In this document: piece by piece, positions 5,294 through 55,765 of the stretch
Layout of the letters: each line of letters starts with the position of its first letter
Numbering within the stretch: position 1 is the first letter of the stretch
Source: Eubacteriales bacterium
GTDB taxonomy: Bacteria; Bacillota; Clostridia; Oscillospirales; CAG-272
Assembly: GCA_045538685.1 (NCBI GenBank)
Contig: JAZSRX010000013.1
Coordinates: 12,980 to 76,979 of the forward strand
Direction of reading: 5' to 3'
DNA length: 64,000 bases
Notes under the pieces: generated by a model
Seen by the model: the letters and a program-made list of their open reading frames with translations, nothing else
Database searches by the model: none
Told to the model about the DNA's origin: nothing
Translations under genes and position numbers: made by a program

Positions 5294-5310
5294 ACGAAAG
5301 GACGAAAAAA

Positions 5311-6765: not shown

Positions 6766-6779
6766 TCGGAGGGCGGAAT

Positions 6780-7577: not shown

Positions 7578-7622
7578 TCCGGCACTTCTCTAAAAAATTC
7601 TTGAAAGGGGGCAAATTGTTCC

Positions 7623-8843: not shown

Positions 8844-8894
8844 GCGGCATTAGGACTTTATTCCTGCCCCAATTAACAAGAAAGGGAAAAACTG

Positions 8895-10580: not shown

Positions 10581-10621
10581 TTTTTCACTAAGAAATTACC
10601 ATTTTTGAGAAAGGAGTCACC

Positions 10622-21194: not shown

Positions 21195-21197
21195 TAA

Positions 21198-24068: not shown

Positions 24069-24090
24069 AATTAACAGATAGGAAAATAGT

Positions 24091-26090: not shown

Positions 26091-26103
26091 ATGGGAGAAA
26101 AAA

Positions 26104-33853: not shown

Positions 33854-33895
33854 CTTTAGTTAACCCAATATAAAAAATACAAAAAGGAGAAAGTC

Positions 33896-36800
33896 ATGAA
33901 AACCAGAAGTATTATCCTTCTAATGGCGTTAATGTTCGTGTTCGCCCTGGCGCTGACATCCTGCGATGCTATTTCGCAGCTGTTACCCGGAAACCAGTCG
34001 CACGAGCACAAGTGGGCAGAGGCTACTTGTACGTCACCTAAGACCTGTACTGAGTGTGATGCTACCGAGGGTGAGGCCCTTGGACACACCGAGCAGGTTA
34101 TTCCCGGAAAGGAAGCTACCTGTACAGAGGAAGGCTACACCGAGGGCAAGATCTGTACCGTATGTAACGAGGTTACTGTGGCACAGCAGTCTACCGTTGC
34201 AAAGGGACATTCTGCCATCGAAGCAGGCTGCGAGACCGCATCTACCTGTAGTGTGTGTCACGTAGTTCTCTCTCCCGCACTCGGTCATGATGAGGTGGAT
34301 GTAGCTCCTACCAATCCCACCTGTACCGAGGAGGGTCTTACCGCAGGTAAGGCGTGCTCCCGCTGCGATAAGGTATTCGTAGCGCAGGAGACCATTCCCG
34401 CACTCGGACATACCGAGGAGACCCTGGCAAGGGTTGAGCCCGATTGCGTAAACACCGGTTTTACCGAGGGTAAGAAGTGTTCTGTTTGCGGTGATATCAC
34501 CGTAGCACAGGAGACTATTCCCGCTCTTGGTCATACCGAGCAGACCCTGGCAAGGGTTGAGCCCGATTGTGTAAACACCGGTTTTACCGAGGGTAAGAAG
34601 TGCTCTGTATGCGGAGAGATCACCGTAGCACAGGAGACTATTCCCGCACTCGGACATACCGACGAGACTCTCGCAAGGGTTGAGCCCGATTGTGTAAACA
34701 CCGGTCTTACCGAGGGTAAGAAGTGCTCTGTATGCGGAGAGATCACCGTAGCACAGGAGACCATTCCCGCACTCGGACATACCGAGGAGGTCATCCCAGG
34801 ATTTGCACCCACCTGTACGGCAACAGGCCTTACCGATGGAAAGAAGTGTACCGTTTGCGGTGTGATCACCCAGGCACGGCAGGACATTCCCGCAAACAAC
34901 CACAAGGACGATGACGGCGACTTTAAGTGTGACGTATGTTCTGCAGTTCTTTGCACCAGCCACGTTGCATCCGAGCCCGTTCAGGAGGAGTATAAGGCAG
35001 CTACCTGTACCGAAGCCGGCTCCTACGTTCTCGTGACATATTGCGCAAACTGTCAGTACACTATGAACAGAGAGACTAAGGTTATTGATGCACTCGGACA
35101 TACCGATGAGATCCTTCCCGCCGTAGCACCCACCTGTACACAGACGGGTCTTACCGAGGGTAAGAAGTGCTCTGTTTGTAGCGCAATCCTCAAGGAGCAG
35201 GAGAAGGTCGATATCGTTCCTCATACTCCTGGTGAGTGGATCGTGACAACAAGTCCCACCTGCGAGACCGACGGTGAAAGACTTGCACAGTGTACCGTTT
35301 GTTCTGCTATTGCAAAGCAAGAGGCCATTAATAAGCTAGGCCACGCATACAGCGTGGTTTACACCTGGTCTGAGGACGGCTCTACCTGTACTGCAACAGA
35401 GATCTGTCAGAATGACAACAGTCACGTACGCAATACAGAGACCGCTACCGTTTCTACGGTCGACCTTGATGTAAGCAAGAGTGGCGTTAAGTTTACCTAT
35501 AACGTAGTATTTGCTAACGACAGCTTCGAGGCACAGAGCGTAGAGAAGAGCGGCGAGCTCGCTCTTGAAAATAAGATCGCAACCGTCACCGCTCCCGAGA
35601 TCGCCGGCAGAGTTGCATCTCACGACTTCGTAAAATTCAGCTTCCACGATGAGGAGGCAACCTATAAGTTCACTATTAACTATTCCGAGATCGACGTTTG
35701 GGACGGCTCGGTAGCTACCGAGTTTGCAGGCGGAAGCGGAACCGAAAACGATCCTTACATCATTAAGACCGGCGCACAGCTTGCATACCTTGCAAAGCTC
35801 GCTATGGACGGAACTGCCGCAAAAGATTCTGTTTACGGCACTGGCATTTACTACAAGCTTGCCGCATCCCTTGATCTCAGCGGACATCAGTGGACTCCCA
35901 TTGCAATGTACGACAAGGGTTATTCCTGGACATACTTCGACGGCATTTTTGATGGCGCAGGCCACAAGATCATCTTCAATATCGAAACTACGAGCTACGG
36001 CTACGGTCTGTTCGCAGGCCTTGGCGCAAATAGCGTTGTAAAGAACCTCACTCTCTACGGAAGTGTTAAGACCGCTCACAGAGCAGGCGCTCTTGCTTAC
36101 ATCACTCAGTCCGGCGCTTATGTAGAGAACGTAACCAACTATGCAAGTGTAACCTGTACCGCAACCGGCGGTTATGTAGGCGGTCTTGTCGGCTCCCTGT
36201 CCGGTGCTGATTCCGTAATGAACAACTGTGTAAACTACGGAACGGTTTCCAGCGCAGGCAAGCAGACCGGCGGTATTACCGGTACTACTCCCGCAACAAT
36301 AACCAACTCGGTTAACTTCGGTGATGTTACCTGTACTCCGGGTACCGTAGGCGGCATTACCGGTACTTCCACGACCGCTAAGATTATCGGCTGTGCAAAC
36401 TACGGCGCGATCGATGGCGAAGGCACCTGCGGCGGTATTGTAGGTAACATTACAACCAACACTACCGTATCTCTTTGCGTGAACTACGGAGCAGTTACCG
36501 CATCCAGCTGGAACCTTGGCGGTATCGGCGGCTATATGGGCGCGGGCAGCAGCGTTCTCGGCTGTGCAAACTACGGCAGCGTTATTCTTTCCGACAAGAG
36601 CAATGTCGGCGGTATTATAGGTAACAACCTTGGTGCTGTGGGCGACTACGTTGCTGCGGACGGCACCGTTTATCACACCGTGAACTACGGCACCGTTACC
36701 GGTCCTAAAAACGTTGGCGGTATTGCGGGTTATGCGTATGACAGCAAGACCGGCACTAACGGTACTATGACCAACGCTGTAAACTACGGCACCGTTAAGG

Positions 36801-38731
36801 GTGCGGCTTGCAACAGCGAGGGCGTTAATCAGATCTGCACAAACGGTACAAAGACCGATTGCGTCAGCGAGGGCACCGCAGCTGTCGGCGACCACAATCT
36901 TACTCACACCGACGCAAAGGATGCGACCTGTGAGGCAACAGGTAACGTAGCATACGACACCTGCTCCGTTTGCGGAAAGAACTATGATGCAGACGGCAAC
37001 GTGCTTGAAAACGTTGTTATTCCCGCACTTGGCCACGCCTGGGGCGAGGGTGTTGAGGGTGACGGTAAGATCACCTACACCTGCGGCAATTGCGGCGCGA
37101 CAAAGGAGGAGCAGATAGTAGAGGATCCCTTCACCGTTACTGTAAATTACCTTTATCTTGACGGCAGTGTAGCAGCCGAGGCAGAGACCATTGAGGTTGC
37201 CGAAGGCGATATCTACACCGTAAATGCAAAGACCATTGAGGGCTACGTTCCCTCTCACGATTACGTTAAGCTTCACATTCTTGAAAGAACTAACGTTGTA
37301 ACAATCTACTATTCCGAGCTTGACACCTGGGACGGCACGTCCGTCAGCACGGGTCTGTCCGGCGATGGCACGGCTGAAAGCCCCTATCTCATTCAGTCTG
37401 CGGCTGATTTTGCATACTTTGCTTCTCAGCTTAATAACGCAGCAGTAGGTCAGACAGAGAACTTCCTGGGTCAGTATATCAAGATGACAAAGTCTATTGA
37501 CCTTAACGGCAATCTTCTTATTGCAGGTAACCACAGCGGTTGGAATAAGTACCAGGGCTTCGGCGGTACCTTCGACGGTAATAACTGCACGATCAGAGGC
37601 ATTAACGTTGAGCCTACCACAGGCACATCCTCCGCACTCTTCGGTTGTATTACAAAGGCAGGTACTCTTAAGAACCTTATCGTTTACGGTAATGCAAAGG
37701 GCGCAGCAACCGTTGGTGGCGTTGTAGCATATCAGCTCGGTACTGTTGACAACGTAACAAGCTACGTAACAGTAACTGCAACAGGCGGCACTATCGGTGG
37801 CGTTGTAGCAAACCAGGAGAGCAGTGCGGGCGTTCTTTCCAACTGTGTAAACTACGGCAATGTTACCAGCACTAGCTACATAGTAGGCGGTGTTACAGGC
37901 TCCGGCGGAGCAACTATAACTAACTGTGTAAACTGGGGTACCGTTCAGGCAGGTAGCGAAACTGTTGGCGGTATTGCAGGAACAACAAAGAATAAGGGTA
38001 CAATCTCCGGTTGTATCAACTACGGTGACGTTAAGACCACCGCAGGTGACAAGGGCATGGTTGGCGGTATCGCAGGTAAGCTTGTCAAGCCTATCGACAA
38101 CTGCGCAAACTACGGTACTATCACAGGTGCTAACACCACAGGCGGTATTGCAGGTAGCGCAGACAGCATCAGCACAATTACAAACTGCTATAACTACGGC
38201 GCAGTTAATGCTACCAGCTGGAATATTGGCGGTATCGTAGGCTCTACTGATGCAAATGTCAGCGATTGTATAAACTACGGTGATGTAACAAGCACCGCAG
38301 ACTGTGTCGGCGGTATCGCAGGATCTTCCAAGGCTATCATCTCCGGATGTACTAACTACGGTACAATTAAGGGCACCGGCAGATCTGCAGGTATTGCATA
38401 CTATTCTAACGGCACTATTGAAAACTGTATCAACAACGGCGACGTGATCGGTGGCTGGGACCTTGGCGGTATTCTTGCCTGGGTTGGCGACGGTCAGTCC
38501 GCAACCATTATTGGTTGTACCAACAATGCTAACATTACCGGTACTTGGAACAACGGCGGTATCTTCGGTCTTGCACACGATAACGCAGGCACCGTAACCA
38601 TCACAGACTGTACCAACAACGGACATATCGTATCCACCACCGGTGGACAGATCACCATTGCTGTTAAGGCGGTAATCACCGATTGCACCGAAAACGGCTC
38701 TTGGACGTCTGCAGAGGAAACAGCAGAATAA
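33896..38731 (+). CDS. 1611-aa non-catalytic surface lipoprotein: His/Cys repeats, MucBP-like domain, two GLUG-type beta-helix modules
   Basis: Lipobox LTSC; many H..C..CxxC repeats; two WDG..G.GT..PY.I caps followed by NCxNYG...VGGIxG repeats; no recognisable catalytic motif. Confidence 0.85.
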   Translation: MKTRSIILLMALMFVFALALTSCDAISQLLPGNQSHEHKWAEATCTSPKTCTECDATEGEALGHTEQVIPGKEATCTEEGYTEGKICTVCNEVTVAQQSTVAKGHSAIEAGCETASTCSVCHVVLSPALGHDEVDVAPTNPTCTEEGLTAGKACSRCDKVFVAQETIPALGHTEETLARVEPDCVNTGFTEGKKCSVCGDITVAQETIPALGHTEQTLARVEPDCVNTGFTEGKKCSVCGEITVAQETIPALGHTDETLARVEPDCVNTGLTEGKKCSVCGEITVAQETIPALGHTEEVIPGFAPTCTATGLTDGKKCTVCGVITQARQDIPANNHKDDDGDFKCDVCSAVLCTSHVASEPVQEEYKAATCTEAGSYVLVTYCANCQYTMNRETKVIDALGHTDEILPAVAPTCTQTGLTEGKKCSVCSAILKEQEKVDIVPHTPGEWIVTTSPTCETDGERLAQCTVCSAIAKQEAINKLGHAYSVVYTWSEDGSTCTATEICQNDNSHVRNTETATVSTVDLDVSKSGVKFTYNVVFANDSFEAQSVEKSGELALENKIATVTAPEIAGRVASHDFVKFSFHDEEATYKFTINYSEIDVWDGSVATEFAGGSGTENDPYIIKTGAQLAYLAKLAMDGTAAKDSVYGTGIYYKLAASLDLSGHQWTPIAMYDKGYSWTYFDGIFDGAGHKIIFNIETTSYGYGLFAGLGANSVVKNLTLYGSVKTAHRAGALAYITQSGAYVENVTNYASVTCTATGGYVGGLVGSLSGADSVMNNCVNYGTVSSAGKQTGGITGTTPATITNSVNFGDVTCTPGTVGGITGTSTTAKIIGCANYGAIDGEGTCGGIVGNITTNTTVSLCVNYGAVTASSWNLGGIGGYMGAGSSVLGCANYGSVILSDKSNVGGIIGNNLGAVGDYVAADGTVYHTVNYGTVTGPKNVGGIAGYAYDSKTGTNGTMTNAVNYGTVKGAACNSEGVNQICTNGTKTDCVSEGTAAVGDHNLTHTDAKDATCEATGNVAYDTCSVCGKNYDADGNVLENVVIPALGHAWGEGVEGDGKITYTCGNCGATKEEQIVEDPFTVTVNYLYLDGSVAAEAETIEVAEGDIYTVNAKTIEGYVPSHDYVKLHILERTNVVTIYYSELDTWDGTSVSTGLSGDGTAESPYLIQSAADFAYFASQLNNAAVGQTENFLGQYIKMTKSIDLNGNLLIAGNHSGWNKYQGFGGTFDGNNCTIRGINVEPTTGTSSALFGCITKAGTLKNLIVYGNAKGAATVGGVVAYQLGTVDNVTSYVTVTATGGTIGGVVANQESSAGVLSNCVNYGNVTSTSYIVGGVTGSGGATITNCVNWGTVQAGSETVGGIAGTTKNKGTISGCINYGDVKTTAGDKGMVGGIAGKLVKPIDNCANYGTITGANTTGGIAGSADSISTITNCYNYGAVNATSWNIGGIVGSTDANVSDCINYGDVTSTADCVGGIAGSSKAIISGCTNYGTIKGTGRSAGIAYYSNGTIENCINNGDVIGGWDLGGILAWVGDGQSATIIGCTNNANITGTWNNGGIFGLAHDNAGTVTITDCTNNGHIVSTTGGQITIAVKAVITDCTENGSWTSAEETAE
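34379..34790 (+). repeat. 123-bp (41-aa) intragenic tandem repeat, 3 full near-identical copies plus a partial copy
   Basis: GTAGC.CAGGAGAC.ATTCCCGC recurs at 34379, 34502, 34625 and 34748. Confidence 0.95.
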
Positions 38732-38743
38732 TTAAATAACAAT

Positions 38744-38774
38744 TGCAAGAAAGGGCATCTCGCCCTTTCTTGCA
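38744..38774 (+). other. perfect 13-bp intergenic stem-loop without U-tract
   Basis: TGCAAGAAAGGGC-ATCTC-GCCCTTTCTTGCA followed by CACCAAAAA. Confidence 0.85.
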
Positions 38775-38798
38775 CACCAAAAATGAAATCAGGGGAAA

Positions 38799-41534
38799 AT
38801 GATGAAAACTAAAATTCTTTGTTCATCACTTATTTTAGCACTTTCACTTTGCGCTCTTACCTCCTGCAGGGAAGAGCACACCCATCGGTTCTCCACCGAG
38901 TATTTCGGTGACGGGACACATCATTGGCATCAATGCGACTGCAAGGAAATTGCGGAAAAGGAAGAGCACCTATGGGACGAGGGAAGGATACTTATTTATC
39001 CCACCACCGAGTCCGAGGGCATAGAGTCCTTTAAATGTACGGAATGCGGATATGAAAAGAGCGAGGCGGTAGCAAGGCTTGAGCAGACACACTCTCACAG
39101 CTTTGACAGCGGTAAGGTCAATTCGGACGGACTTATCGAATACACCTGCTCCTGCGGATTTAAAAAGACCGAGCCGCCTGTAGGCAATTATGCCGTGACC
39201 ACGTTGAAGGCGGTTGAGGGAGATATTATTAAGTTTATTTACACAGACATTAGCGCGGGCGGTCTTGTCGAGGTGGTTTTACCCGAGATCGACGGATACG
39301 TTCCCGAGTACGATAGATTTATTATTGACGTTGAAAATAATTCTTCGGAAAACACTATATATTATTCGCCCCTGAGCATCTGGGACGGTATCTCTGTAAG
39401 TGAGAGACTGTCCGGCGAGGGAACGGAAGAGAGCCCTTATCTTATTCAGAGTGCGGCGGATTTTGCATACCTTATGGCAGGCGATTTTGCAGGAAAGCAT
39501 TTCAAGCTGACGGTCAGCGTTGACCTTGCCGATAATGCCTTCCACGTTGACAGCTTTAACGGTGTAATTGATGGAAATCATTGCTCCATAAGGGGAATAA
39601 GTAATTCCAAGGGACTCTTCGGAACTCTCGGAAAGAACAGCGTAGCTTGTAACCTCAGTCTTTACGGTGATGTCGTAGCTGCGCAGAACGTGGGCGTGCT
39701 TGCGGCTACGTCTTATGGAAAGCTGTCGGGAATTGTAAATTACGTAAGTCTCGTGGGAAACGGCAGACTCGGCGGAATTGTTTACAGCTCATCGGGTATT
39801 TTTGAAAACTGCAAAAACTACGGCGATATTAAGGGTCAGTGGGATATTGGCGGCATAGTCGGTTACATTGCTCCGGGATATCAGTCAACTGTAAGTGGTT
39901 GTGTCAATTACGGAAAGATAAGTGGCACCACGGGCGTTGGAGGCATTTTTGGATTTGCCGATCCCTCTGCCTCGATAATCGTTACGGATAGCGTAAATTA
40001 CGGTAATATCACCGCAACCTGGGGAGGCGGCGGAATAGGCGGAAACATCAGCCGAGAGTCTGTCGTTTCGGGCTGCGAAAGCTACGGAAGCGTGATTGGT
40101 GACGGAGAGCTTGGCGGTATCGTCGGTAAGTGCAGCGGTAAGCTGACCGACAACACTAATTACGGTCGGGTATCCGGCAAGGTGGATATTATCGGCGGCG
40201 TTATCGGACATCTTCACGACACGACCTACGGAAGGGAGATCGTTGAAACCAACAAAAACCTGGGAGAGGTAAGCGGTCCAAATGCCTGCGATCTGGTGGG
40301 TGACGGATACGTTTACACCGAGGAGGAAAGCGGGGCATCCGGTCCTCTGACAGAGGAGGAATTCAAGGCACAGCCCGCAATGTACGGTTCTCCCTGGATG
40401 AATGCGAAAACACGCATGAAAATAGTGATTAAAATCAAGATGGCCAAGGGTACGGTCATTACCTTCCTTGGCGACACCTCGGTTTATTGCTGGGGCGTGA
40501 TGGAGACCACGGATAAGGATAATGCGTCAAGCGGCGCATGGAAGGACTCGGGCTGGAACACAAGCTGGGCTGATCCCACAGTCAAAACCTATACTACCAC
40601 CTATGCAGCGGGATATCTTGTTCTCACCGTGGGAAGGCTGGATTCATCGGGAAAACCTAACGTAGAGCTTACCGCAGATGAGGTTAATAATATTCACAGC
40701 ATGTTTAAGGTTGAGGGCGAGAAGGCGGGCTCCGACGGATCGGGCTCCAATAACAACGTCTGGCTTGACGAGGATATGGTGAGTATTAACCACCGTGGCT
40801 GGCACAAGGCACCCGAGAACACTCTCTCCGCCTACGAGGAATCCTATAATCAGGGCTTCAAGTACGTAGAATGTGACGTTCAGTTTACAAAAGACGGTAT
40901 TCCCGTCCTTCTTCATGATGATACCATTGACCGTACGTCAAACGGCAGCGGTACGTTGAGTCAGATGACCTATGCGGAGCTTTTGCAATACGATTTTTCC
41001 TATGATCACAATGATACCGTCAACGATTTCAGCGCGTACAGAGGAGAGAAGATACCCACCTTCGAGGAGTTCATCGCCCTGTGTAAGAGACTTGGACTTC
41101 ATCCTTATATTGAGATAAAGGGAAATATAACCGATGCAGAGGCAAGGCTTCTTTTGAAGATAGTCTCCGATGCGGATATGCTGAGGGGTGTTTCCTGGCT
41201 CAGCTTCTCGGGAGATGCGCTTGCTAAAATTGCGGACAACTGTCCCGGTGCGCGTCTTGTCTGGGTGCTGACGGATACAAATGCGGCGAAGATCCGTGCG
41301 AACAACATTCCCTTTGCAAAGGCAAATCTTATGACGGGTGAGAGCGAGGTCGTGTTCGATCTGTATTATACTCTTGCTAAGCAGGATGTTTGCGACCTTC
41401 TGAGGACTGAGGGTATTCCCCTCGAGGTCTGGACGGTTAACAGCATAGACGCAATACTCTCTCTCGATCCTTACGTCAGCGGTGTTACCAGCGACTCCCT
41501 GAACGCAAAGGAAATTATTGATGATTCAAAATAA
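38799..41534 (+). CDS. lipoprotein: His/Cys repeats + GLUG beta-helix + glycerophosphodiester phosphodiesterase (GDPD)
   Basis: Lipobox LTSC; C-terminal NHRG..APENTL, VECDV..TKDG.PVLLHD.TIDRT, IPT.EE, IEIK, WTVN, GVTSD. Confidence 0.9.
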   Translation: MMKTKILCSSLILALSLCALTSCREEHTHRFSTEYFGDGTHHWHQCDCKEIAEKEEHLWDEGRILIYPTTESEGIESFKCTECGYEKSEAVARLEQTHSHSFDSGKVNSDGLIEYTCSCGFKKTEPPVGNYAVTTLKAVEGDIIKFIYTDISAGGLVEVVLPEIDGYVPEYDRFIIDVENNSSENTIYYSPLSIWDGISVSERLSGEGTEESPYLIQSAADFAYLMAGDFAGKHFKLTVSVDLADNAFHVDSFNGVIDGNHCSIRGISNSKGLFGTLGKNSVACNLSLYGDVVAAQNVGVLAATSYGKLSGIVNYVSLVGNGRLGGIVYSSSGIFENCKNYGDIKGQWDIGGIVGYIAPGYQSTVSGCVNYGKISGTTGVGGIFGFADPSASIIVTDSVNYGNITATWGGGGIGGNISRESVVSGCESYGSVIGDGELGGIVGKCSGKLTDNTNYGRVSGKVDIIGGVIGHLHDTTYGREIVETNKNLGEVSGPNACDLVGDGYVYTEEESGASGPLTEEEFKAQPAMYGSPWMNAKTRMKIVIKIKMAKGTVITFLGDTSVYCWGVMETTDKDNASSGAWKDSGWNTSWADPTVKTYTTTYAAGYLVLTVGRLDSSGKPNVELTADEVNNIHSMFKVEGEKAGSDGSGSNNNVWLDEDMVSINHRGWHKAPENTLSAYEESYNQGFKYVECDVQFTKDGIPVLLHDDTIDRTSNGSGTLSQMTYAELLQYDFSYDHNDTVNDFSAYRGEKIPTFEEFIALCKRLGLHPYIEIKGNITDAEARLLLKIVSDADMLRGVSWLSFSGDALAKIADNCPGARLVWVLTDTNAAKIRANNIPFAKANLMTGESEVVFDLYYTLAKQDVCDLLRTEGIPLEVWTVNSIDAILSLDPYVSGVTSDSLNAKEIIDDSK

Positions 41535-41558
41535 ATTATTAATAAATGAGGTGAAGTG

Positions 41559-44303: not shown

Positions 44304-44321
44304 ATTATAGGAGGAACCCGT

Positions 44322-47300: not shown

Positions 47301-48365
47301 GGCGGACACGACCTCTTTATCGGCGGATTCCCCGGATGGGCAAGCAGAAAGGGCTTCTTTGGCTTCTTCGACGGTAATCACTGCACGATCAGAGGACTTA
47401 ACTCCACCGCCTCTCTCTTCGGTACGATTGAGACAGGATATCTTAAAAACCTCTCTGTTTACGGTCAGGTCAACGGCACCAGCACGATCGGAGGTATCGT
47501 AGGATACGTTGCCAGTGGCGGTATTCTTGAGAATCTTACAAGCTACGTTACAATTAAGGGTACCAATACTGTAGGCGGTATCGTGGGCAACTCTGAGAAT
47601 CAGGCATCCAGCGTTATCAACTGCGTAAATTACGGCAGCGTAACAGGTACAAGCTGGATCATCGGCGGTATTACAGGATCCGGCGGACATATTATCAGCG
47701 GATGCGTAAACTACGGTAGCGTAACCACTCCCGATGACGTTGTCGGCGGTATTGCAGGTACCACAAAGGATACGGGATATATTACCGAGTGCTATAACTA
47801 CGGAACCATTACCGCGCGCGGTAAGATGGGAGGCATAGTCGGTCAGGCAATCAAGCCCGTTTCCAATTGTGTAAACTACGGTGATCTTAACGGAACCTGG
47901 GCTCTCGGCGGTATCGTAGGATACATCAAGGAGGGAACAGTTACCATTTCGGATTGTATGAATTACGGCACCATCACGGCATCGTCTACGGGCAGCGGCG
48001 GTATTCTCGGTCTTTCCGAGGCAGCTGCAAAGTCGGTCGTTAAGGATTGCGTAAACTACGGCAGTCTCAAAACTGGCTGGGGCTGCGGAGGCATCGTTGG
48101 CGATACTCACGGCGATATCATCGGTTGTACAAACTACGGTGATCTTTCTGCTCCCGGCGATCTCGGCGGCATAGTAGGAAAGACTCACGGCTCTGTTACC
48201 GAGTGTAAGAACCTTGGCAGCGTGACAGGAACTTCGGTTCACGTTGGAGGTATCGTAGGACGTCTTCACAATTCCGCTTATGCCGATGTGATCAATTCCT
48301 CGAATGAGAACCTGGGCAGCATATCAGCTCCCGATCCTCAGCAGATCATCGGTACTGTAGAATAA
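44322..48365 (+). CDS. lipoprotein: His/Cys repeats + LamG-like + calcineurin-like metallophosphoesterase + GLUG beta-helix
   Basis: HIALT...LYING...F.G.I..V.VY (LamG3); GDTQ, GDI, GNHD, TTH, SGH (metallophosphoesterase); WDG cap and NYG/GGI repeats. Confidence 0.88.
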   Translation: MKNRILILVFVLLLSIFCSCRRVEEHTHEFSDKYSSDETSHWYGCDCGEKSEVAEHTFGNSVTVIYPTTESEGLKSTKCSVCGYDKKEAIPKLEQTHKHSFDNLVSNEEGHWYECVCGETEGKNNHSWDSGAVTIPAGEVETGVKTLTCTECGEKVSENIPSAKESGLSFLRETHYRLSDKLSATPLTIEAVIRVDRSMSERVGAIFSNYYGIREDWHFEIYDGGIPRFYYTDAAGNIQDIRFNNVDVRTGEFLHIALTFDFFEGMVSLYINGEIEQIIICDVDLADDITRYQFVIGGDNRSNNGDYFKGQISSVAVYSDVRTADEIARSAEKGTNLYADDLLAAYLLNENSGGKDIQDLSGNDYIIQKEWLDSRETTIDYAYSFAVVGDTQWLSKYKPEKFEGIYDWILENKDSKKIAHVFGLGDITEDWNTAGKESEWIRAQQYIYKLNGVVPYSLVRGNHDESKYFNKYFATKEYMDQFGGYFMTEGDIRNSYKLVTIGTTDYLFLTIDFGASDEILAWANDVVIRYPDRRVIVTTHAYHGYDGGHLNFDNVPSSGNIHAGSDVDTSVGDNPGRGYNNGQQIWEKFISLHPNIFLVMSGHTPLEDVFVLKSEGVHGNVVTQMLIDPQWMDPQKDGTGMVCMLYFSEDGRQIEVEWICTDNGMYYKEQNQFVMDLEGSFDNPSHDFKSSYNEALHFMACDCGYIHSKEAHSFDGGTLTQDGFMEYSCECGYKRIASATDDPIALELQKIIEKYYNGGVYYKSTSSATSFFNREIFWGEDDSNLGNTADFLTLYDILMGKRGDLRMDLGWNCFDGVYSSANESTVSGVTELVLGAANGRINKVSIEENGAQLLIKLYEGDSVVTEATVGLYATTILLGQDGAELGRIYNKVDADGLCRIETPAFSGLVSEYDSIILSMNHDDLVKTVYYSPITVWDGKTVSSSLSGSGTETDPFLVQNGADLAYIARIVNSAAAATPNFSGKYFKMTQSIDLGGHDLFIGGFPGWASRKGFFGFFDGNHCTIRGLNSTASLFGTIETGYLKNLSVYGQVNGTSTIGGIVGYVASGGILENLTSYVTIKGTNTVGGIVGNSENQASSVINCVNYGSVTGTSWIIGGITGSGGHIISGCVNYGSVTTPDDVVGGIAGTTKDTGYITECYNYGTITARGKMGGIVGQAIKPVSNCVNYGDLNGTWALGGIVGYIKEGTVTISDCMNYGTITASSTGSGGILGLSEAAAKSVVKDCVNYGSLKTGWGCGGIVGDTHGDIIGCTNYGDLSAPGDLGGIVGKTHGSVTECKNLGSVTGTSVHVGGIVGRLHNSAYADVINSSNENLGSISAPDPQQIIGTVE

Positions 48366-48372
48366 ACACTTT

Positions 48373-48441
48373 ATCCTGCGCCCCCTCGGGGGCGTGGGAT
48401 CGGAGAGCTAAGGGGGCGATGAGCACCCCCTTAGCAGCTCC
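48373..48441 (+). other. two adjacent GC-rich stem-loops without U-tracts
   Basis: ATCCTGCGCCCC/GGGGCGTGGGAT and GCTAAGGGGG/CCCCCTTAGC. Confidence 0.8.
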
Positions 48442-48525
48442 TGATATAGATTTTTCCCATAGTAAAATGTATTTGCAGTAAAATTCATTTCATTATGAGA
48501 AAAACACAACAAAAGGGGAAAGACT

Positions 48526-50262
48526 ATGTTGAATTTCAGAAATGAATATCCAAGACCTCATTTTAGAAGAGAGGAGTGGCTGTCGCTTAACGGTATTTGG
48601 GAATTTGAGTTTGACGACGACCATAACGGAGAGACAAGAGGATTAACGAGCGGTAAGGTGAAGCTCTCTCGCGAGATTAACGTTCCTTTTACATACCAAT
48701 ATCCGGACAGCGGAATCGGGGAGACGGATTTTCACGATACGCTTTGGTATAGAAGGAGCTTCGTATACGACAAAAAAGGAAAGAGTGTCATCCTGGGCTT
48801 CAATGCCAGCGATTTTGCTACGACCGTATGGGTGAACGGCCACTTTGCCGCAACCCACGTAGGAGGTTTTTCTCCGTTTACGATCGACGTATCCACCTTC
48901 GTAACTGAGGGCGAAAATATTATAGTTGTCAAGTGCTACGACCCCCTTGACCCTACCATTCCCAGAGGAAAGCAGTCATGGCTTAACACACCCTTCAGCT
49001 GCTGGTATACCCCCAACAGCGGAATTTGGCAGAGCGTATGGCTGGACTTCGTGGGCGAGGATTCGATTGAGGATTTCTCCATAACCCCCGACGTTGATAC
49101 GAATTCCTTCAGCGGGGAAATAAAGCTTCGCAACGGAGTGGCAGATCTGCTGGAAATCAAGGTCCTTTACGATGGCAAGCAGGTGAAACGTCAGCTTTTC
49201 ACCCCCGACGGAAAGTATACCCGATATACAGTCAATATGATGGAGCAGAATTTTGTTGACGAGGTCACCTATTGGGCCCCTGAGCATCCCAATCTTTTCT
49301 ACGTTGATATTAATCTTTACCTCGGTGACAGACTCCTCGATACCGTTCACACAAGGTTTGGTATGAGGAAGATCAGCGTTGGCGAGGACGGCAGGATACT
49401 TCTTAATAACAAACCTCTTTACCAGCGACTTATTCTTGATCAGGGATATTGGAAGGGCAGCGGTCTTACGGCTCCCTCCGTGGAGGCGATCAAAAAGGAT
49501 ATTTCTCTCACCAAGGAGATGGGCTTTAACGGTGCGAGAAAGCATCAGAAATTTGAGGATCCTTATTATTACTATCTTGCCGATGAAATGGGCCTGCTTA
49601 CCTGGTGTGAAATGCCCTCGTCATACAACTTCAACCCCGACGAAATGTCCTACGTAACGGGCGAATGGCAGGAAATTATGAGGACTGCAAGCAAGTTCAG
49701 CTCGATCATTACCTACGTTCCCCTTAACGAGTCCTGGGGTGTAAGGAAGCTGGCTGTGGATCTGGAGCAGCAGAATTTTGCCCGCTCGCTCTACTATTTG
49801 ACTAAGGCAGCTGACAGATCCAGGCTCGTGTCTACAAACGACGGTTGGGAGAACCTCACCGAAAGCGATATTCTTGCGATACATGACTATGCGACTCCCG
49901 GAGGCGACCTTCGTGAGAAATACAATGAGTCTACCTATAACGACGGCTTCCAGACCTTCAGAAAAATCTATGCTGAAGGAAATGATCATATGGGTCATCC
50001 CGTTTTGCTCACCGAGTTCGGCGGTATTATGTTTGAGAAGGATCAGTTCAATGGAAATTGGGGCTACAATTCAGCCGCCAAGAGCGATGAGGAATTTTTC
50101 GACAGATTGAAGTCCCTTGTCTGCGGAATCTATGAGGCAGATTTCCAGGGCTTCTGCTATACACAGCTCACCGACGTACAGCAGGAGGTCAACGGACTTC
50201 TTGACGCCGAGCATAATCCCAAGGTTGACGTTTCTAAGATAAGGGAGATCTTTTGGAGATAA
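48526..50262 (+). CDS. GH2 glycoside hydrolase, cytoplasmic (short YPRP/LDQG subgroup)
   Basis: YPRP..R..W.SLNG.WEF, SGIWQSVW, FGMR, LDQGYW, GFNG.RKHQK, NESWG (acid/base), TEFGG (nucleophile), YTQLTDV.QE.NGL. Confidence 0.92.
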   Translation: MLNFRNEYPRPHFRREEWLSLNGIWEFEFDDDHNGETRGLTSGKVKLSREINVPFTYQYPDSGIGETDFHDTLWYRRSFVYDKKGKSVILGFNASDFATTVWVNGHFAATHVGGFSPFTIDVSTFVTEGENIIVVKCYDPLDPTIPRGKQSWLNTPFSCWYTPNSGIWQSVWLDFVGEDSIEDFSITPDVDTNSFSGEIKLRNGVADLLEIKVLYDGKQVKRQLFTPDGKYTRYTVNMMEQNFVDEVTYWAPEHPNLFYVDINLYLGDRLLDTVHTRFGMRKISVGEDGRILLNNKPLYQRLILDQGYWKGSGLTAPSVEAIKKDISLTKEMGFNGARKHQKFEDPYYYYLADEMGLLTWCEMPSSYNFNPDEMSYVTGEWQEIMRTASKFSSIITYVPLNESWGVRKLAVDLEQQNFARSLYYLTKAADRSRLVSTNDGWENLTESDILAIHDYATPGGDLREKYNESTYNDGFQTFRKIYAEGNDHMGHPVLLTEFGGIMFEKDQFNGNWGYNSAAKSDEEFFDRLKSLVCGIYEADFQGFCYTQLTDVQQEVNGLLDAEHNPKVDVSKIREIFWR

Positions 50263-50271
50263 ATAAAGCGT

Positions 50272-51948
50272 ATGAAAAAATTACTTTTACTCTTATTACT
50301 CACCGTTTCTTTAACGGTAACGGCATGTGTTCGCAATGATCCGCCCCCTGCTTCTAAGCCCGATATACCAGTGGACAAAAAGGAGTTCCTCGTTGAAGGG
50401 GAGGATTATATTGACATTGCCTCGACCTGGGACGGCAACAGCTTTGAATACAACGAGTCCCTTTGGTATATGAACAGTCTTGACGACGTTCCTCTTCCCG
50501 ATCCGCAGGTGTTTGTTGAGGACGGAATCTATTATATCGTCGGTACCAGCGACAGAAACGTTAACGTTGTTGACTGCTACGTAACCACAGACTTCGTTAC
50601 CTATGAGCCCCATTACGGCATCTATAATCCCGCTCTCTATGAGGGATGGGAGAGCAGGGCGGAGGCAATCATCTATGCTCCCGAGATCTATTGCTTTGAC
50701 GGTGTGTACTATATGTACTACAGCGCAAAGGATGAAAATCAGAACCGCAGATCCAGCGTCGTTTCTGCCAACAATCCCCTTGGCCCCTACAAGCCGATAG
50801 TGAACGGTGATGTGGACGGACTTAACAACCCACTTTTCCATAACCCCGATTACGTGGATCGAACCCTTGACGCAACCGTGTTTACCGATGACGACGGAAA
50901 AAGGTATATGTATTTCACCGTAACAGAGGATACACAGCATATCGTCGGAGTGGAGCTTACCTCTCCCTACGAGGCGGATTGGTCAACCTACAAGAAGCTC
51001 CTTGTTCCTCAAAGGGTTGAGCCGGATAACGAGGAAATAGTTATTGAGTGGGAGGGCTACCGTCAAAAGGACGTGCAGATAAACGAGGCGCCCTTTATGA
51101 TAAAGAGCTCGGGCAAGTACTATCTCACTTACTCGGCTAACGGATGCTGGAATAAGTATTACAACGTTTGTTACGCAGTGTCCGATTCGCCTCTCGGTGA
51201 TTTTGTGAAGCCTTACGAGGAGGATGGTTTGTGGACAAATCTTCTTATCGGCTGTCCCAGTACAGACGATAGTGAATCGCCCGTATATAACCAGTGGGCG
51301 GGATTTGCCTCCGGCACGGGTCACCATTGCTTCTTTTACTCGGGTCAGGATCTTATGATCGGCTACCACGCTCACAGAAACAGAGATTGGAACTCTACTG
51401 AGTATACCGAGCGATATTTTGCCTTTGACTACGTGCATTTTGATGATAGCGGTGTTCCCTTTATAAACGGCCCGACATATTCAATAATCAATCTGCCCGG
51501 AGATATCAGCGGTTTTTACAATATTTCCGCTGACGGCAAGGCTACCTCGGACAGTATAAATAACCCGGGCAAGGCAAATGACGGCTATATCGTCGACTGC
51601 TATAATCTCGAGTCGCCAGACAGCGAGCTTGTTCTTCCTTCCGGAAAATCCGAGATCGAAATAAGCTTCGGCGGGGAATATGAAATCGGCGGAATCATGG
51701 TCTATAACAGCGCCTTTTACGACAGCTATATCATTGAGATCGAGTATATTGATTTCGGTAACGGCAATATTTTGTACTATCCCCAGTTCTGCGAGGACTT
51801 CTACGTGAGCGATGAAAAGGAGTTTATCAAGCCCCTAAGCTGCTTCAACGTTGAGTTCATCACCTCCTTCACCGCCGAAAGCGTGAAAATAGGATTTAAC
51901 CTTCCCGAGGGCGGTAATATTAATGAGATCGTTGTTTTAGGACGATAA
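50272..51948 (+). CDS. GH43-family lipoprotein, paralog of 28126-29781
   Basis: Lipobox VTAC; LPDP, YAPE, DATVF, EAPF; long shared blocks (NGCWNKYYNVCYAVSDSPLG, YFAFDYVHFD, EIEYIDFGNGN, NEIVVLGR). Confidence 0.87.
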   Translation: MKKLLLLLLLTVSLTVTACVRNDPPPASKPDIPVDKKEFLVEGEDYIDIASTWDGNSFEYNESLWYMNSLDDVPLPDPQVFVEDGIYYIVGTSDRNVNVVDCYVTTDFVTYEPHYGIYNPALYEGWESRAEAIIYAPEIYCFDGVYYMYYSAKDENQNRRSSVVSANNPLGPYKPIVNGDVDGLNNPLFHNPDYVDRTLDATVFTDDDGKRYMYFTVTEDTQHIVGVELTSPYEADWSTYKKLLVPQRVEPDNEEIVIEWEGYRQKDVQINEAPFMIKSSGKYYLTYSANGCWNKYYNVCYAVSDSPLGDFVKPYEEDGLWTNLLIGCPSTDDSESPVYNQWAGFASGTGHHCFFYSGQDLMIGYHAHRNRDWNSTEYTERYFAFDYVHFDDSGVPFINGPTYSIINLPGDISGFYNISADGKATSDSINNPGKANDGYIVDCYNLESPDSELVLPSGKSEIEISFGGEYEIGGIMVYNSAFYDSYIIEIEYIDFGNGNILYYPQFCEDFYVSDEKEFIKPLSCFNVEFITSFTAESVKIGFNLPEGGNINEIVVLGR

Positions 51949-51963
51949 AAACGGAGGTCGGAT

Positions 51964-52980
51964 ATGAGAAAATATCTGTTACCCGACAGCGGTAATTTTT
52001 ATAAGGCAAATTTGCACGTTCATACAACTGTCTCCGATGGGCAGATGACTCCCGAGGAGATAAAGCGAATATACAAGGAACACGGTTATTCCATAGTGGC
52101 GTTTACCGACCACGAGATTATGGTGCCCCAGGCTCATCTCACAGACGGGGAATTCCTTGCTATCACCTCTACCGAGATCAGCGTCAACGAACGGTGTGAC
52201 TGTGATTTCAATTTTACAAAGACCTATCACCTGAATATTTATTCTCCTTTGGAGAATAAAAATTGCTTCAGCAGCTTTGACAGATCAAAGATGTGGTTGG
52301 AAGGGTCAATGAAGTATATCACTCGGGAGCAGGAGGACTGCTCTATCTGCAGGACCTATGATATTGAGAATGTCAACCGCGTCATACAAATGGCAAATGA
52401 CGAGGGCTGTCTGGTCTCATATAATCATCCCGTCTGGTCACTGCAGGATTATTCCGATTATATCGGTCTTCGCGGTCTGTGGGGAATAGAGCTGTATAAC
52501 ACCGGATGCGCACGGAATGGATACCGTGATTCGGATAAGCCCCTTGACGATCTTCTGAGAATTGGTGAGAGGGTCCTTCCTCTTGCCACCGATGATGCCC
52601 ACAGAATAGAGGACTGCTTCGGCGGATTTGTGATGATAAGGGCAGGGGAGCTTTCCTACGACTCTGTCTTTTCAGCCCTGCGTGACGGTGACTTTTACGC
52701 ATCCGAGGGCCCCGAGATCTACGAGATTTCAATTGACGACGGCATAGTCAGCATCCGCACGTCTCCCGTTGCCTTTGCCTCACTCTCCACCGACACGCGA
52801 TTTAACTACACCCGCCGCTGCGAGGAGGGAAATATGACCGAGGTGAGCTTTGACATTAAGTGGTATCTTGAGAGAAGCCGTGACGGTGTCAACCGGCATC
52901 AGTATATCCGACTGACACTTATGGACAGCTCGGGCAGGCATGCGTACAGCCGCGCCTATTTTCTCGATGAATTTATCTGA
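51964..52980 (+). CDS. PHP-domain metallohydrolase (phosphoesterase-like), cytoplasmic
   Basis: KANLHVHTTVSDG, AFTDH, E, YHLN, YNHP.WS, ELYN, ATDDAH, G.FYAS.GP. Confidence 0.88.
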   Translation: MRKYLLPDSGNFYKANLHVHTTVSDGQMTPEEIKRIYKEHGYSIVAFTDHEIMVPQAHLTDGEFLAITSTEISVNERCDCDFNFTKTYHLNIYSPLENKNCFSSFDRSKMWLEGSMKYITREQEDCSICRTYDIENVNRVIQMANDEGCLVSYNHPVWSLQDYSDYIGLRGLWGIELYNTGCARNGYRDSDKPLDDLLRIGERVLPLATDDAHRIEDCFGGFVMIRAGELSYDSVFSALRDGDFYASEGPEIYEISIDDGIVSIRTSPVAFASLSTDTRFNYTRRCEEGNMTEVSFDIKWYLERSRDGVNRHQYIRLTLMDSSGRHAYSRAYFLDEFI

Positions 52981-52996
52981 AATATAGGAGTAGAAT

Positions 52997-55765
52997 ATGA
53001 AGAATAAATCTTTGAGTATTATCTCTTTGGTATTTGCATTTACACTTGCACTCTTGGTATGTCTGGGCGGGTTGACTGCCGAAGCGTCGGGCGGTCTTTG
53101 GATCACCGACGACATTTCTGATCCTACGGACTACGATTATTCCTTCGCGATCGTGGGTGATACACAAAAGCTGGTCGCCCACTATGCGAACAAGCTCGTT
53201 CTCGAGCGCGGAGATGCCGATGAGATCAAATACAAGTACAACTACGACGTTCACGAGTATCCCGAAAACGATACGTTCGTAAAGGTATACGACTACATAC
53301 TGAACAATGCCGATAGCAAAAATATCGCCCACGTCTTCGGCCTCGGTGATATTACCGAGCGCGCCTCGGTCTGGGAATGGGTGCAAAAGGGCTGCCCCTA
53401 CGCTCCCGACGAGGAGTTCTCCATTGCGGTCGAGCAGTTTATGAGAATGAAGGCCGCGGGCATTGACTTCTCGCTGGTTCGCGGAAATCACGAGTCATGG
53501 GACACCTACAATAAATATCTCGGCACGGGAGAGGCAAGCGCAGAGCTTGGCTATGCCGATCTGGTTGACGAGGTATACGTTCATCCAAACGGAACGGTGG
53601 ACTACACCAATTCCATTCACTATTTCTCCGCAGGCACCCTCGACTATATGGTAGTCACCCTTGACTACGGTGCAAGCGACGCCGTGCTTAATTGGGCAGG
53701 CGAGAGAATTGCGGCAAATCCCTACAAGAACGTAATCATCACGACCCACGCATATATGAACAAGGACGGAACGACGATTGATACGGGCGATTCCGTAGCT
53801 CCGTCGAGAGATTCCGACAACGTCGTATACGATAAAACCAATATCAACAACGGCGACGATATGTGGAATAAGCTCATCTCGAGATATCCCAACATCGTCC
53901 TTGCGATGAGTGGACACGAGCCCACCGACGACGTGGTTATGTCACAGTGGAAGGGCCAATATGGCAACACCGTCACCAACATTCTTATCGACCCCCAGGG
54001 AATGGATAAGACTTACTTCAAGGACGGTTGCTCGGGTGCTGTCGCGATGTTCTATTTCTCCGAGGGCGGAAAGCATGTAGAGGTTCGCTATTGGTCTACC
54101 GCGAGAAATTGCTATATCAAGACGGGCAATCAGTTCAGCTTCACCATCAACACGATTGACGCCGATTACACGGTAGTCAACGAGGGCATAGCATCTCTTG
54201 CCGGGACGGTGAGCCTTCAGGATTACGAAAAGGTGCAGAAGCTTTGGCAGATATACGAAAATATGTCTGATGCAAACCGCGCCAAGGTCGTAAATTACGA
54301 GAAGCTCGAAGAGGCGCACAGCCACCTTGAGAGCATTGTTCCCACGGACAGATATACCATCACCTGGGACGTTGATGGTGTTACGTCCACCACTACCGCC
54401 GGCTACGGTGAGCTTCCCGTATTCGAGGGCGAGGCGTACAAGTACGGATACGAGCTTATCGGCTGGGCAGAGGAGAAGGGCGGTACACTCACCGACGTTG
54501 CTATTGCAACCGGAGATAAGACCTATTACGCCGTGTTCTCCGACGTCAGCGTCTGGGACGGCTTCATTCCCGCAATATCCGATACCGACACGGCGGACAG
54601 TCTGTTTGACGGTAATGGCACGAAGGACGATCCCTATCTTATACAGTCTGCAGATGATCTTGCAAGACTATCCGCCCTGACCAAGGGAATAAACTACGGA
54701 AGCCGAGACGTCTATTTCAAGCAGACCATCGATATTGATCTGACGGCAGGAAACTGGCAGCCTATCTGTACCGATATTGAATATCCCGACAATAAGTGGA
54801 CAAGGTGGTTTACCTTCAGCGCAAATTACGACGGAGATAATCACATCATCACTCTTAAAGAGGAGTCGATGAAGATCGCCTTTGGTCTCTTCGGCGGACT
54901 TAACGGCAGCGTCAGCAACCTCGTTATTGACGGCAGCATCAGAGCTACGGGATATACGGGTGCGCTGGTCAGCCAGGCGCACAACGGCGCCACTATCACA
55001 AACGTGATCAACAAGGCGGATATTAACGCAAACGGAAACCAGGTTGGCGGACTTATTGGCAACGTTGTCAACGAGGCATCCGTCACCGTTACAGACTGTA
55101 GGAACGAGGGCAGTATTTATTCCGACGGATCCTTCGTTGGCGGTCTTGTGGGCGGTGGCTGGGCAACCGTCCTTATCTCGAACTCGGAAAATTCAGGCAG
55201 TGTTACAGGCGCATCCACCGTTGGCGGTATCACGGGCGAGCTGTGGTTCAGCGGTATGACCGACAGATGCCGGAACGTCGGCACGGTAAAGGCAGGGGCA
55301 AGCGTTGCAAGCGGAAATATCGGAGGCGCAGGCCTATACGTGGGAAATCTCATCGGCCACAGCAATCAGAACTACACCGTTACATGGATGATCAACGGAA
55401 GTGCCGAGAGCATTCTTCTTCCTTACGGTGCAGACCCCGTATACAGTGGTACACCCGAAAAGGACGGCGCGGCCTTCCTTGGCTGGGCGACCTCACAGAA
55501 TGGCGAGCCCGTGGATGAGCTGCCTATGGTATGCTGCGATGCAATATACTATGCTATATTTGCCGAAGGCGACGTAGATGACCCCGAGGAGCCTACCGAT
55601 CCCGAGGAACCTACCGATCCCGAGGAACCTAACGATCCCGAGGAACCTACCGACCCCGAGGAGCCCACCGATCCTGAGGAGCCCGAGAAGCTTAACATTT
55701 TTCAGCGTATCTGGAGAGCGATTTTGAATTTCTTCAGACGGCTTTTCGGTATTGGGAAAAAGTAA
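52997..55765 (+). CDS. secreted calcineurin-like metallophosphoesterase + GLUG beta-helix + PEEPTD linker + amphipathic C-terminal tail
   Basis: Signal peptide ending AEA; GDTQ, GDI, GNHE, TTH, SGH; F.GW repeat domains; WDG cap; tail NIFQRIWRAILNFFRRLFGIGKK. Confidence 0.88.
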   Translation: MKNKSLSIISLVFAFTLALLVCLGGLTAEASGGLWITDDISDPTDYDYSFAIVGDTQKLVAHYANKLVLERGDADEIKYKYNYDVHEYPENDTFVKVYDYILNNADSKNIAHVFGLGDITERASVWEWVQKGCPYAPDEEFSIAVEQFMRMKAAGIDFSLVRGNHESWDTYNKYLGTGEASAELGYADLVDEVYVHPNGTVDYTNSIHYFSAGTLDYMVVTLDYGASDAVLNWAGERIAANPYKNVIITTHAYMNKDGTTIDTGDSVAPSRDSDNVVYDKTNINNGDDMWNKLISRYPNIVLAMSGHEPTDDVVMSQWKGQYGNTVTNILIDPQGMDKTYFKDGCSGAVAMFYFSEGGKHVEVRYWSTARNCYIKTGNQFSFTINTIDADYTVVNEGIASLAGTVSLQDYEKVQKLWQIYENMSDANRAKVVNYEKLEEAHSHLESIVPTDRYTITWDVDGVTSTTTAGYGELPVFEGEAYKYGYELIGWAEEKGGTLTDVAIATGDKTYYAVFSDVSVWDGFIPAISDTDTADSLFDGNGTKDDPYLIQSADDLARLSALTKGINYGSRDVYFKQTIDIDLTAGNWQPICTDIEYPDNKWTRWFTFSANYDGDNHIITLKEESMKIAFGLFGGLNGSVSNLVIDGSIRATGYTGALVSQAHNGATITNVINKADINANGNQVGGLIGNVVNEASVTVTDCRNEGSIYSDGSFVGGLVGGGWATVLISNSENSGSVTGASTVGGITGELWFSGMTDRCRNVGTVKAGASVASGNIGGAGLYVGNLIGHSNQNYTVTWMINGSAESILLPYGADPVYSGTPEKDGAAFLGWATSQNGEPVDELPMVCCDAIYYAIFAEGDVDDPEEPTDPEEPTDPEEPNDPEEPTDPEEPTDPEEPEKLNIFQRIWRAILNFFRRLFGIGKK
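55580..55687 (+). repeat. 18-bp tandem repeat x6 encoding DPEEPT
   Basis: GAYCCYGAGGARCCY... counted directly. Confidence 0.95.

Follow-up and report, generated by a model that had tools for sequence, protein, structure and literature searches.

We analysed a 64,000-nucleotide stretch of DNA (the window) from an uncultured gut bacterium, a member of the Eubacteriales of the CAG-272 lineage (assembly GCA_045538685.1, contig JAZSRX010000013.1, positions 12,980 to 76,979), and found that six copies of a GLUG-like beta-helix module are carried by five of its surface proteins: four enzymes and one 1611-amino-acid (aa) lipoprotein with no catalytic domain, 33896 (genes are named by their first position in the window). 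We favour, with moderate confidence, the reading that the module is a carbohydrate-binding module (CBM)-like domain and that 33896 is a tethered capture protein, which draws on sequence, structural models and analogy. Judged by sequence, the six copies are a distinct, locus-specific branch of a known domain family, and the role proposed for them is hitherto undescribed for that family.

The copies lie where an initial annotation, made from the sequence alone, had placed them. WDG motifs stand at 35699 and 37328 in gene 33896, at 39381 in the GDPD gene 38799, at 47127 in 44322 and at 54554 in 52997, and a motif scan found PY[LI]I, IDL, FDG and NCxNYG/GGIxG motifs downstream of all five. The sixth copy, described as lacking WDG, is in a DUF4886 protein (16665-18695, minus strand) that falls outside the interval 33896..55400 to which the annotation referred; it lacks WDG indeed, and matches a profile of the five WDG copies at E=3e-55. 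Pairwise blastp E-values between modules run from 1e-14 to 1e-97, and the six copies are 32-52% identical over the first ~255 residues. Neither the motif set nor a blastp match to the module was found in the glycoside hydrolase (GH) and SASA proteins of the locus, as had been stated, or in its PHP and ATP-binding cassette (ABC) proteins; a single WDG in the GH43 gene 50272 has no accompanying motifs and was set aside as chance. Recent duplication of whole modules was also rejected, only two short matches (97 and 162 nucleotides) among the 60 best DNA self-matches touching modules. A profile search found four more remote GLUG-like open reading frames (ORFs) elsewhere in the source genome. A 1477-aa ORF (G000 C8:14310-18740, plus strand) has GLUG-like coils at each end and ~650 Leu/Ile-rich residues between them, probably helical repeats.

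Protein 33896 (33896..38731, plus strand) begins with the lipobox LTSC and a stalk of ~40-aa Cys/His beta-hairpin repeats (33965..35665), followed by two units of a MucBP-like domain and a beta-helix. Copy 1 of the helix (35666..36895) belongs to the second of two sub-lineages described below, and copy 2 (37295..38710), which is C-terminal and bears a conserved W/Y/E/K set and a Trp ladder, to the first. Over the whole protein, Pfam and NCBIfam returned the MucBP domain only (PF06458, 24.5 bits against a cut-off of 23; residues 1080-1139, at 37133..37312 ahead of copy 2) and no catalytic domain; pre-helix stretches in 38799 and 44322 can be aligned to this domain by blastp. In the model of the N-terminal 582 aa (predicted template modelling score, pTM, 0.34), small beta-hairpin repeats follow one another and helices are absent; no real fold match was obtained for it (TM <= 0.13), and the annotated make-up of stalk plus module stands, with a small MucBP-like domain added. 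The stalk repeat, ATCT..G.T.G..C..C....GH with invariant Cys and His, is common in the lineage, recurs in the window at 61700-63000 and has no informative Pfam family; its units are possibly metal-binding.

The strongest clue to a binding role is internal to the locus. A sibling of 33896, a 1075-aa protein at 61632..64000 (plus strand) that extends beyond the end of the window (full gene L045:1612-4839), shares its N-terminus and stalk (44% identical over 503 columns) and continues with three F5/8-type domains in place of the beta-helix units. The adjacent GH95 lipoprotein (56876..61591, plus strand), which has no beta-helix, also ends in three F5/8-type domains, and the domains of the sibling share 53-63% identity with the last of these. 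The F5/8-type label, that of a sugar-binding fold class, comes from Pfam (PF00754 and PF22633 above cut-offs on GH95) together with this identity, and the F5/8-type alignment had no PDB sequence match. Because the sibling shares the stalk and carries the domains of GH95, the locus twice places an enzyme's accessory module on a tether that has no catalytic domain, once the beta-helix and once the F5/8-type domain, and by analogy the sibling suggests binding for the beta-helix too. A related protein, P0028, bears both modules on one stalk. The ORF listed at 61767-63743 (minus strand) is an antisense shadow of the sibling gene.

The four module-bearing enzymes differ in layout. The lipoprotein 38799 (38799..41534, plus strand) has a beta-helix (39348-40313), a ~140-aa domain without annotation and a GDPD domain. 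The lipoprotein 44322 (44322..48365, plus strand) combines LamG, a calcineurin-like phosphoesterase domain and a C-terminal beta-helix (47094-48362), and 52997 (52997..55765, plus strand) is a secreted calcineurin-like phosphoesterase with a short beta-helix (54521-55372), Flg_new repeats, an EEPTDP linker and a basic hydrophobic C-terminal tail that is likely a membrane anchor. The DUF4886 lipoprotein (16665..18695, minus strand) consists of Big_3, DUF4886 and a C-terminal short beta-helix (16668-17501), and its orthologue sits within the operon in locus L030. Four carriers are thus predicted to be anchored by a lipobox and the fifth, 52997, by its tail. In 33896, 44322 and the DUF4886 protein the helix is the C-terminal, anchor-distal domain, and so has no further domain to hold at a distance. 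The motifs of the phosphoesterases and of GDPD look intact. Among the GDPD structures matched by the GDPD domain of 38799 is 5T91 (E=7e-16), which we take to be GlpQ of Bacillus subtilis; no solved relative was found for the phosphoesterase domain of 44322. A second ~140-aa domain without annotation lies in 44322 (46540-46960, residues ~740-880). The one of 38799 (40330-40760, residues ~510-655) is Trp-rich, stands ahead of GDPD in several relatives (65-73% identity), occurs twice in P0266 and is a candidate binding domain.

We then placed the module structurally using a model of 33896 copy 2 plus its MucBP-like domain, which is a right-handed parallel beta-helix with an N-terminal helical cap (predicted local distance difference test, pLDDT, 95). 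The top structural match was 3N6Z (Z 24.7, root mean square deviation 3.1, 267 residues aligned, 21% identity), followed by the NTD2 domain of IgA1 proteases 7UVK (Z 24.5) and 7JGJ (Z 21.3). Every glycanase among the matches listed scored 3-7 Z units lower than these, and the many tailspikes and polysaccharide lyases at Z 12-18 (best 18.1) share the fold class only. Foldseek gave 3N6Z as its sole match below 1e-3 (E=4.5e-5), and a profile of the six copies matched the 3N6Z sequence at E=1.5e-13, including the G-GT--PY-I / IDL / FDG cap and the GG[IV]xG coils. Sequence and model together indicate that the module is a member of the 3N6Z / IgA1P-NTD2 (GLUG-type) beta-helix superfamily. Four of the six copies scored 14.7-17.4 bits against PF07581 (Glug; cut-off 20.5) and the other two did not match it, certain close homologues do exceed that cut-off, PF05342 (Peptidase_M26_N) matched none of the six, and NCBIfam offered no informative family; on these sequence scores the module is filed as GLUG-like rather than as a strict PF07581 member. 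With 93,556 cluster representatives at E<=1e-3 and 19,111 at 1e-30, the 3N6Z-type family is very large, and its fold is known and common rather than new.

With 3N6Z, which is BACOVA_03286 of Bacteroides ovatus and whose function is unknown, the module shares the fold and the cap motif; unlike 3N6Z and the GLUG proteins of PF07581 and PF05342, the window copies have a Tyr ladder shifted by two positions, Trp-bearing loops, and fusions to phosphoesterases and esterases. The NTD2 gating domain of the M26 IgA1 metalloproteases is a non-catalytic accessory beta-helix on an extracellular hydrolase, as the module is proposed to be, although there the gated substrate is a protein, whereas the window copies have no M26 catalytic region and sit in a glycan locus.

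A tree of 61 module rows, picked from 239 non-redundant modules, divides the copies into sub-lineage I (33896 copy 2, 38799 and 44322; support 99/94) and sub-lineage II (33896 copy 1, 52997 and DUF4886; 93/92). With the exception of the GDPD copy, the nearest relative, where shown, is the same-position copy of another species (67-76% identity). The coils of the branch are distinctive: at the bracketed position of NCxN[x]G, Tyr, Trp or Phe is present in 66% of the window's 35 coils and in 58% of 1227 from the clade, compared to 7% of 3273 in an independent set and 10% of 240 coils in other GLUG proteins, which favour an aromatic two residues earlier. Trp three residues upstream of GGIxG was found in 23% of 40 window matches and 15% of 201 in related loci, compared to 1% of 196 generic ones. 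Within sub-lineage I, four residues stand out (numbering of the 33896 copy 2 model, to which 1074 is added for positions in 33896), W142 being conserved in 89, Y205 in 101, E234 in 88 and K291 in 72 of 104 modules, and in 24, 24, 21 and 21, respectively, of the 24 orthologues of 44322. The aromatic ladders are inferred from sequence to face outward, and the two sub-lineages probably bind different epitopes.

The distribution of the module is that of an accessory domain gained and lost on orthologous enzymes, as far as sequence comparison tells. The core gene order is shared by 11 of the 24 loci of a species-genome scan, in 11 Clostridia metagenome-assembled genomes (MAGs) with 61-74% module identity, three of whose records name yak colon, roe deer cecum or sheep rectum; genome G097 shows the locus span from DUF4886 to PHP. 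Within the genus, the module occurs at E<=1e-40 in 5 of 213 genomes (the source included) and in none of the 74 near-complete ones, and the same 5 hold the orthologues of the GH2 and the phosphoesterases. No match at E<=1e-30 was found in 400 other genomes drawn from the order, and a metagenome scan returned mostly generic GLUG proteins, with the locus type only in L046-L050. Of the 10 loci with a GDPD orthologue (71-78% identical), 4 have it without a helix, and in the other 6 it follows the helix of the phosphoesterase in one fused protein; orthologues of 33896 bear one to three helices. Among 22 intact related phosphoesterases of the genus, from 20 regions picked among about 100 matches, 20 have no helix, 15 have one to four LamG domains and 5 are fused to a SASA esterase. 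These belong to a large family of secreted calcineurin-like phosphoesterases with no solved relative, found in 36 of 213 genus genomes at up to 10 per genome and often beside AraC genes (L115-L134).

The module is a discrete domain with several fusion partners (DUF4886, GDSL esterases, a GH31, phosphoesterases and GDPD), as is typical of CBM architecture. Of the 120 best of 2769 homologues, 76 consist of stalk, MucBP-like domain and module alone, 19 carry a phosphoesterase (2 of them also GDPD), one DUF4886 and one F5/8, while 23 have other long stretches, 6 of these being GDSL esterases. A further set of 247 proteins contained 21 with a cap match of 100 bits or more. Of these, 11 are orthologues of 52997, and 5 of the 10 that are not carry a distant phosphoesterase with intact motifs (24-29% identity), compared to one hit, a GDPD, among the 226 remaining proteins. 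Phosphoesterases can hold up to six tandem module copies; P0128, P0135 and P0166 are secreted proteins of 3700-5200 aa with LamG, a distant phosphoesterase and 3-6 beta-helix caps. In a different locus, GH31, PA14, beta-helix and phosphoesterase are fused in one protein (L033:3486-9233). A stalk protein with two helices lies downstream of this GH31 fusion (L033:3486-9233, L032:3-5438; domains scanned in L033), and in L048 a stand-alone LamG-phosphoesterase lies two genes away from a stalk-plus-helix lipoprotein. The start of a region of P0096 without annotation (residues ~280-950) resembles a pectate-lyase-type beta-helix, a likeness that Pfam and PDB did not confirm and that was not used.

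A binding module fits these observations best because of the variable presence of the helix on enzymes, the one to three copies on stalk proteins, the distal position and the F5/8-type sibling. The initial annotation had proposed, as one option, a new binding module; the binding role is the likeliest of its options, and the word new goes too far, the module being a branch of the 3N6Z/NTD2 family and beta-helical CBM89 already existing. The right-handed beta-helices CBM89 of CapGH10, reported to bind xylan (PMC8810776), and the N-terminal domain of Amuc0953, reported to bind colonic mucin (10.1101/2025.09.11.675649), are precedents for an enzyme-fused, non-catalytic helix whose binding is shown; unlike the module, which 33896 also carries, neither is described on a stand-alone stalk protein in the portions of those sources available. 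Neither CBM89 (CapCBM89, 7JIV) nor Amuc0953 was named among the 50 structural matches listed, and there was no CBM89 sequence match. The annotation had also called 33896 SusE/F-like. Like SusE and SusF of Bacteroidota polysaccharide utilisation loci (PULs), it is encoded in a glycan locus and combines a lipid anchor, a spacer and apparently non-catalytic modules in tandem, but its locus is of Gram-positive type, with an ABC importer and no SusC/SusD pair, its stalk is made of Cys/His hairpins rather than Ig spacers, and its binding is predicted; by analogy, 33896 is at most a counterpart of SusE/F. We suggest that the module acts most like the CBM89 and Amuc0953 domains on enzymes and like SusE/F on 33896, while belonging to neither group. 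DUF1735 proteins occupy SusE/F-like PUL positions, and 32 of 4047 DUF1735 proteins in UniProt also contain GLUG, according to PMC11216935; in two further sources GLUG proteins are mentioned in passing, in the portions available (PMC8480279, PMC3617157).

Several observations weigh against this reading. The best-characterised relative, IgA1-protease NTD2, is reported to gate a protein substrate (PMC9637739), and a literature search to which subscription journals were mostly closed found neither a GLUG-family domain with a shown glycan ligand nor a description of this locus. The union of sub-lineages I and II appears in the best tree as a 26-row group at 73/95 (bootstrap not settled), which neither shows nor rejects a single origin of the six copies. 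By alignment, no single site is common to all six, because the Trp ladder is absent from the short sub-lineage II copies of 52997 and DUF4886 and W142 from the GDPD copy, and the stacked Tyr may be purely structural. The modules are net acidic (D+E 26-30, K+R 15-21), which is unexpected for a polyanion binder. The distant phosphoesterase fusions were detected using the window's own enzyme domains only, and since the five resemble each other they may derive from one event, in which case their independence is overstated. In 38799 and 52997 the helix is placed between enzyme and anchor, where it could be a spacer, and all 14 of the generic GLUG giants sampled are long tandem rods with no credible catalytic Pfam domain.

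These last two points lead to the alternative that survives best, which we nevertheless regard as unlikely: that the module serves as a stiff spacer or folding scaffold, a common surface rod reused, and clusters in the locus through nothing more than local shuffling of genes. The ubiquity of the family, with its many giant tandem arrays, fits such a rod, as does the finding that the residues invariant across the six copies are mostly family-wide structural ones. However, the helix is terminal in three of the five proteins and is the sole candidate for the business end of 33896, same-position orthologues are far closer across species than the paralogues are to each other, and the loop residues W142, E234 and K291 occur in only 0-1% of generic modules. 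If the module were a mere spacer, the locus would still be an undescribed conserved utilisation locus and the module finding itself ordinary.

We consider it improbable that the module, at least in sub-lineage I, is an unrecognised endo-acting depolymerase, with 33896 as the surface endo-enzyme of the locus. The fold class is that of tailspikes and polysaccharide lyases, a Pfam scan found no annotated endo-enzyme in the locus, 33896 copy 2 and 44322 both keep W142, Y205, E234 and K291, and in the adhesin screen of Monzon and Bateman, in the part of their report available, a 3N6Z-like cluster is treated as ambiguous, either adhesive or catalytic (10.1101/2021.12.07.471604). A candidate residue set for catalysis exists in sub-lineage I, but it is not common to all copies: E234 and K291 are missing from four of the six, and alignment found no subfamily-specific acidic or basic residue invariant over the window copies. 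The preference of the structural matches for 3N6Z and the IgA1 proteases over every glycanase also argues against catalysis, and the tandem copies on phosphoesterases resemble avidity more than catalysis.

Still less probable is an adhesin or exosite that binds a protein or cell surface and attaches the cell to particles, mucus or other microbes without specifically recognising the substrate of the locus. The gating of IgA1 by the closest functionally studied homologue, the MucBP-like domain upstream of the helix and the stalk-plus-tip layout of 33896, which is that of fibrillar adhesins, all fit this idea, whereas the restriction of the subtype, within the genus, to genomes with the glycan locus, its fusion to locus enzymes and the F5/8-type domains in the same slot of the sibling do not. 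Least probable of all is the docking system of the initial annotation, in which modules on 33896, a scaffold candidate with one to three copies in its orthologues, would bind those on the four enzymes without cohesin or dockerin: every carrier is predicted to be anchored by itself and needs no scaffold, both partners would offer the same fold, unlike a cellulosome with two complementary module types and anchorless enzymes, the GH and SASA enzymes have no module, GDPD orthologues lose it freely, two scaffold copies are too few for four enzymes, and in L047 and L048 the stalk-plus-helix protein has no adjacent module-bearing enzyme. A complex prediction for 33896 copy 2 and the 44322 module scored 0.00 in two runs, to which we give no weight either way.

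The carriers belong to a ~48-kb Gram-positive-type glycan-utilisation locus that runs from 16665 to beyond 64000, and its other genes suggest how a capture protein would be used. At the cell surface, the two modules on the membrane-anchored stalk of 33896 would capture the polymer. Its substituents would be removed by the anchored phosphoesterases and esterases, which their own module copies would keep on the chain; a SASA acetylesterase lipoprotein without beta-helix lies at 41556..44303 (plus strand), with a second SASA at 29790-31574. The GH43 lipoprotein (50272..51948, plus strand; a paralogue at 28126-29781 is 60% identical) and GH95 would cut outside the cell, and a sugar ABC importer (22437..28113, plus strand; binding lipoprotein, two permeases and ATPase) would take up the fragments. 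Degradation would be finished inside the cell by three enzymes without signal peptide: GH2 (48526..50262), GH3 (31580..33853) and a PHP-family phosphoesterase (51964..52980), all on the plus strand. Pfam matched neither SusC/D nor cohesin/dockerin among the 29 proteins scanned.

The nearest relatives of the GH2 among solved structures are 7XYR, 7SF2 and the beta-D-galactofuranosidase 9J6M/9J6N; 7XYR is assigned to GH2_19 and 9J6M to GH2_18, the furanosidase group, in the available part of PMC12243196. A galactokinase, uridylyltransferase or GalE-like epimerase gene lies directly downstream in 6 of 11 loci. The SASA esterase fusions among the related phosphoesterases (5 of 22) make it probable that phosphate and acetyl groups share one polymer. 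Our best guess from these sequence comparisons is that the substrate is likely an O-acetylated, phosphodiester-substituted furanose glycan, probably of galactofuranose, such as a polysaccharide of microbial cell walls; a plant glycan with arabinofuranose is a possible alternative. Galactofuranose is described as found in microorganisms and not produced by mammals (PMC12290620), and its galactans as degraded by gut bacteria (PMC10115798). GlpQ-type teichoicases of the GDPD family resemble 38799 at the family level only, and GlpQ is reported to cleave glycerophosphate wall teichoic acid (PMC7086022). Specificity of the module for a phospho-glycan is plausible, and the subfamily is also found with SGNH esterases and a GH31.

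GLUG-type beta-helices occur in tens of thousands of protein clusters, and a binding role would be the first job for this very large family. It would also add a new beta-helical CBM family and a Gram-positive-type mode of substrate capture without SusE/F or cellulosome, and could expose a gut-bacterial pathway that recycles phosphodiester-bearing microbial glycans. More tentatively, and with doubts of our own, we raise the wider idea that GLUG-type beta-helices are an unrecognised CBM superfamily, of which this branch reads phosphodiester-substituted, galactofuranose-rich microbial wall glycans, hindgut Clostridia thus feeding on the walls of other microbes, with capture proteins built twice on a Cys/His stalk from the enzymes' own modules of unrelated folds. 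The locus offers a narrow test case, with six copies, two sub-lineages, candidate residues and enzymes that hint at the substrate class.

The GC content of the locus (16665-63743) is 48.8%, compared to 43.0% in the left flank and 42.5% in the genome, which together with its patchy presence in the genus suggests lateral acquisition. AraC regulators are encoded at 55795..56694 and 18774-19619, both on the minus strand, and promoter and terminator scans of 33000-52500 gave results at chance level. The ABC operon is headed, at 20052-22421, by a conserved Ig-domain lipoprotein and an RDD-family membrane protein (72% and 61% identical in G097); protein 20052 proved unrelated to the GH43. Further upstream, at 5284-13339, lies a type IV pilus-like cluster (prepilin peptidase, T2SSF and T2SSE ATPase), followed by a 905-aa protein with GAP1-N2 and GAP1-M domains.

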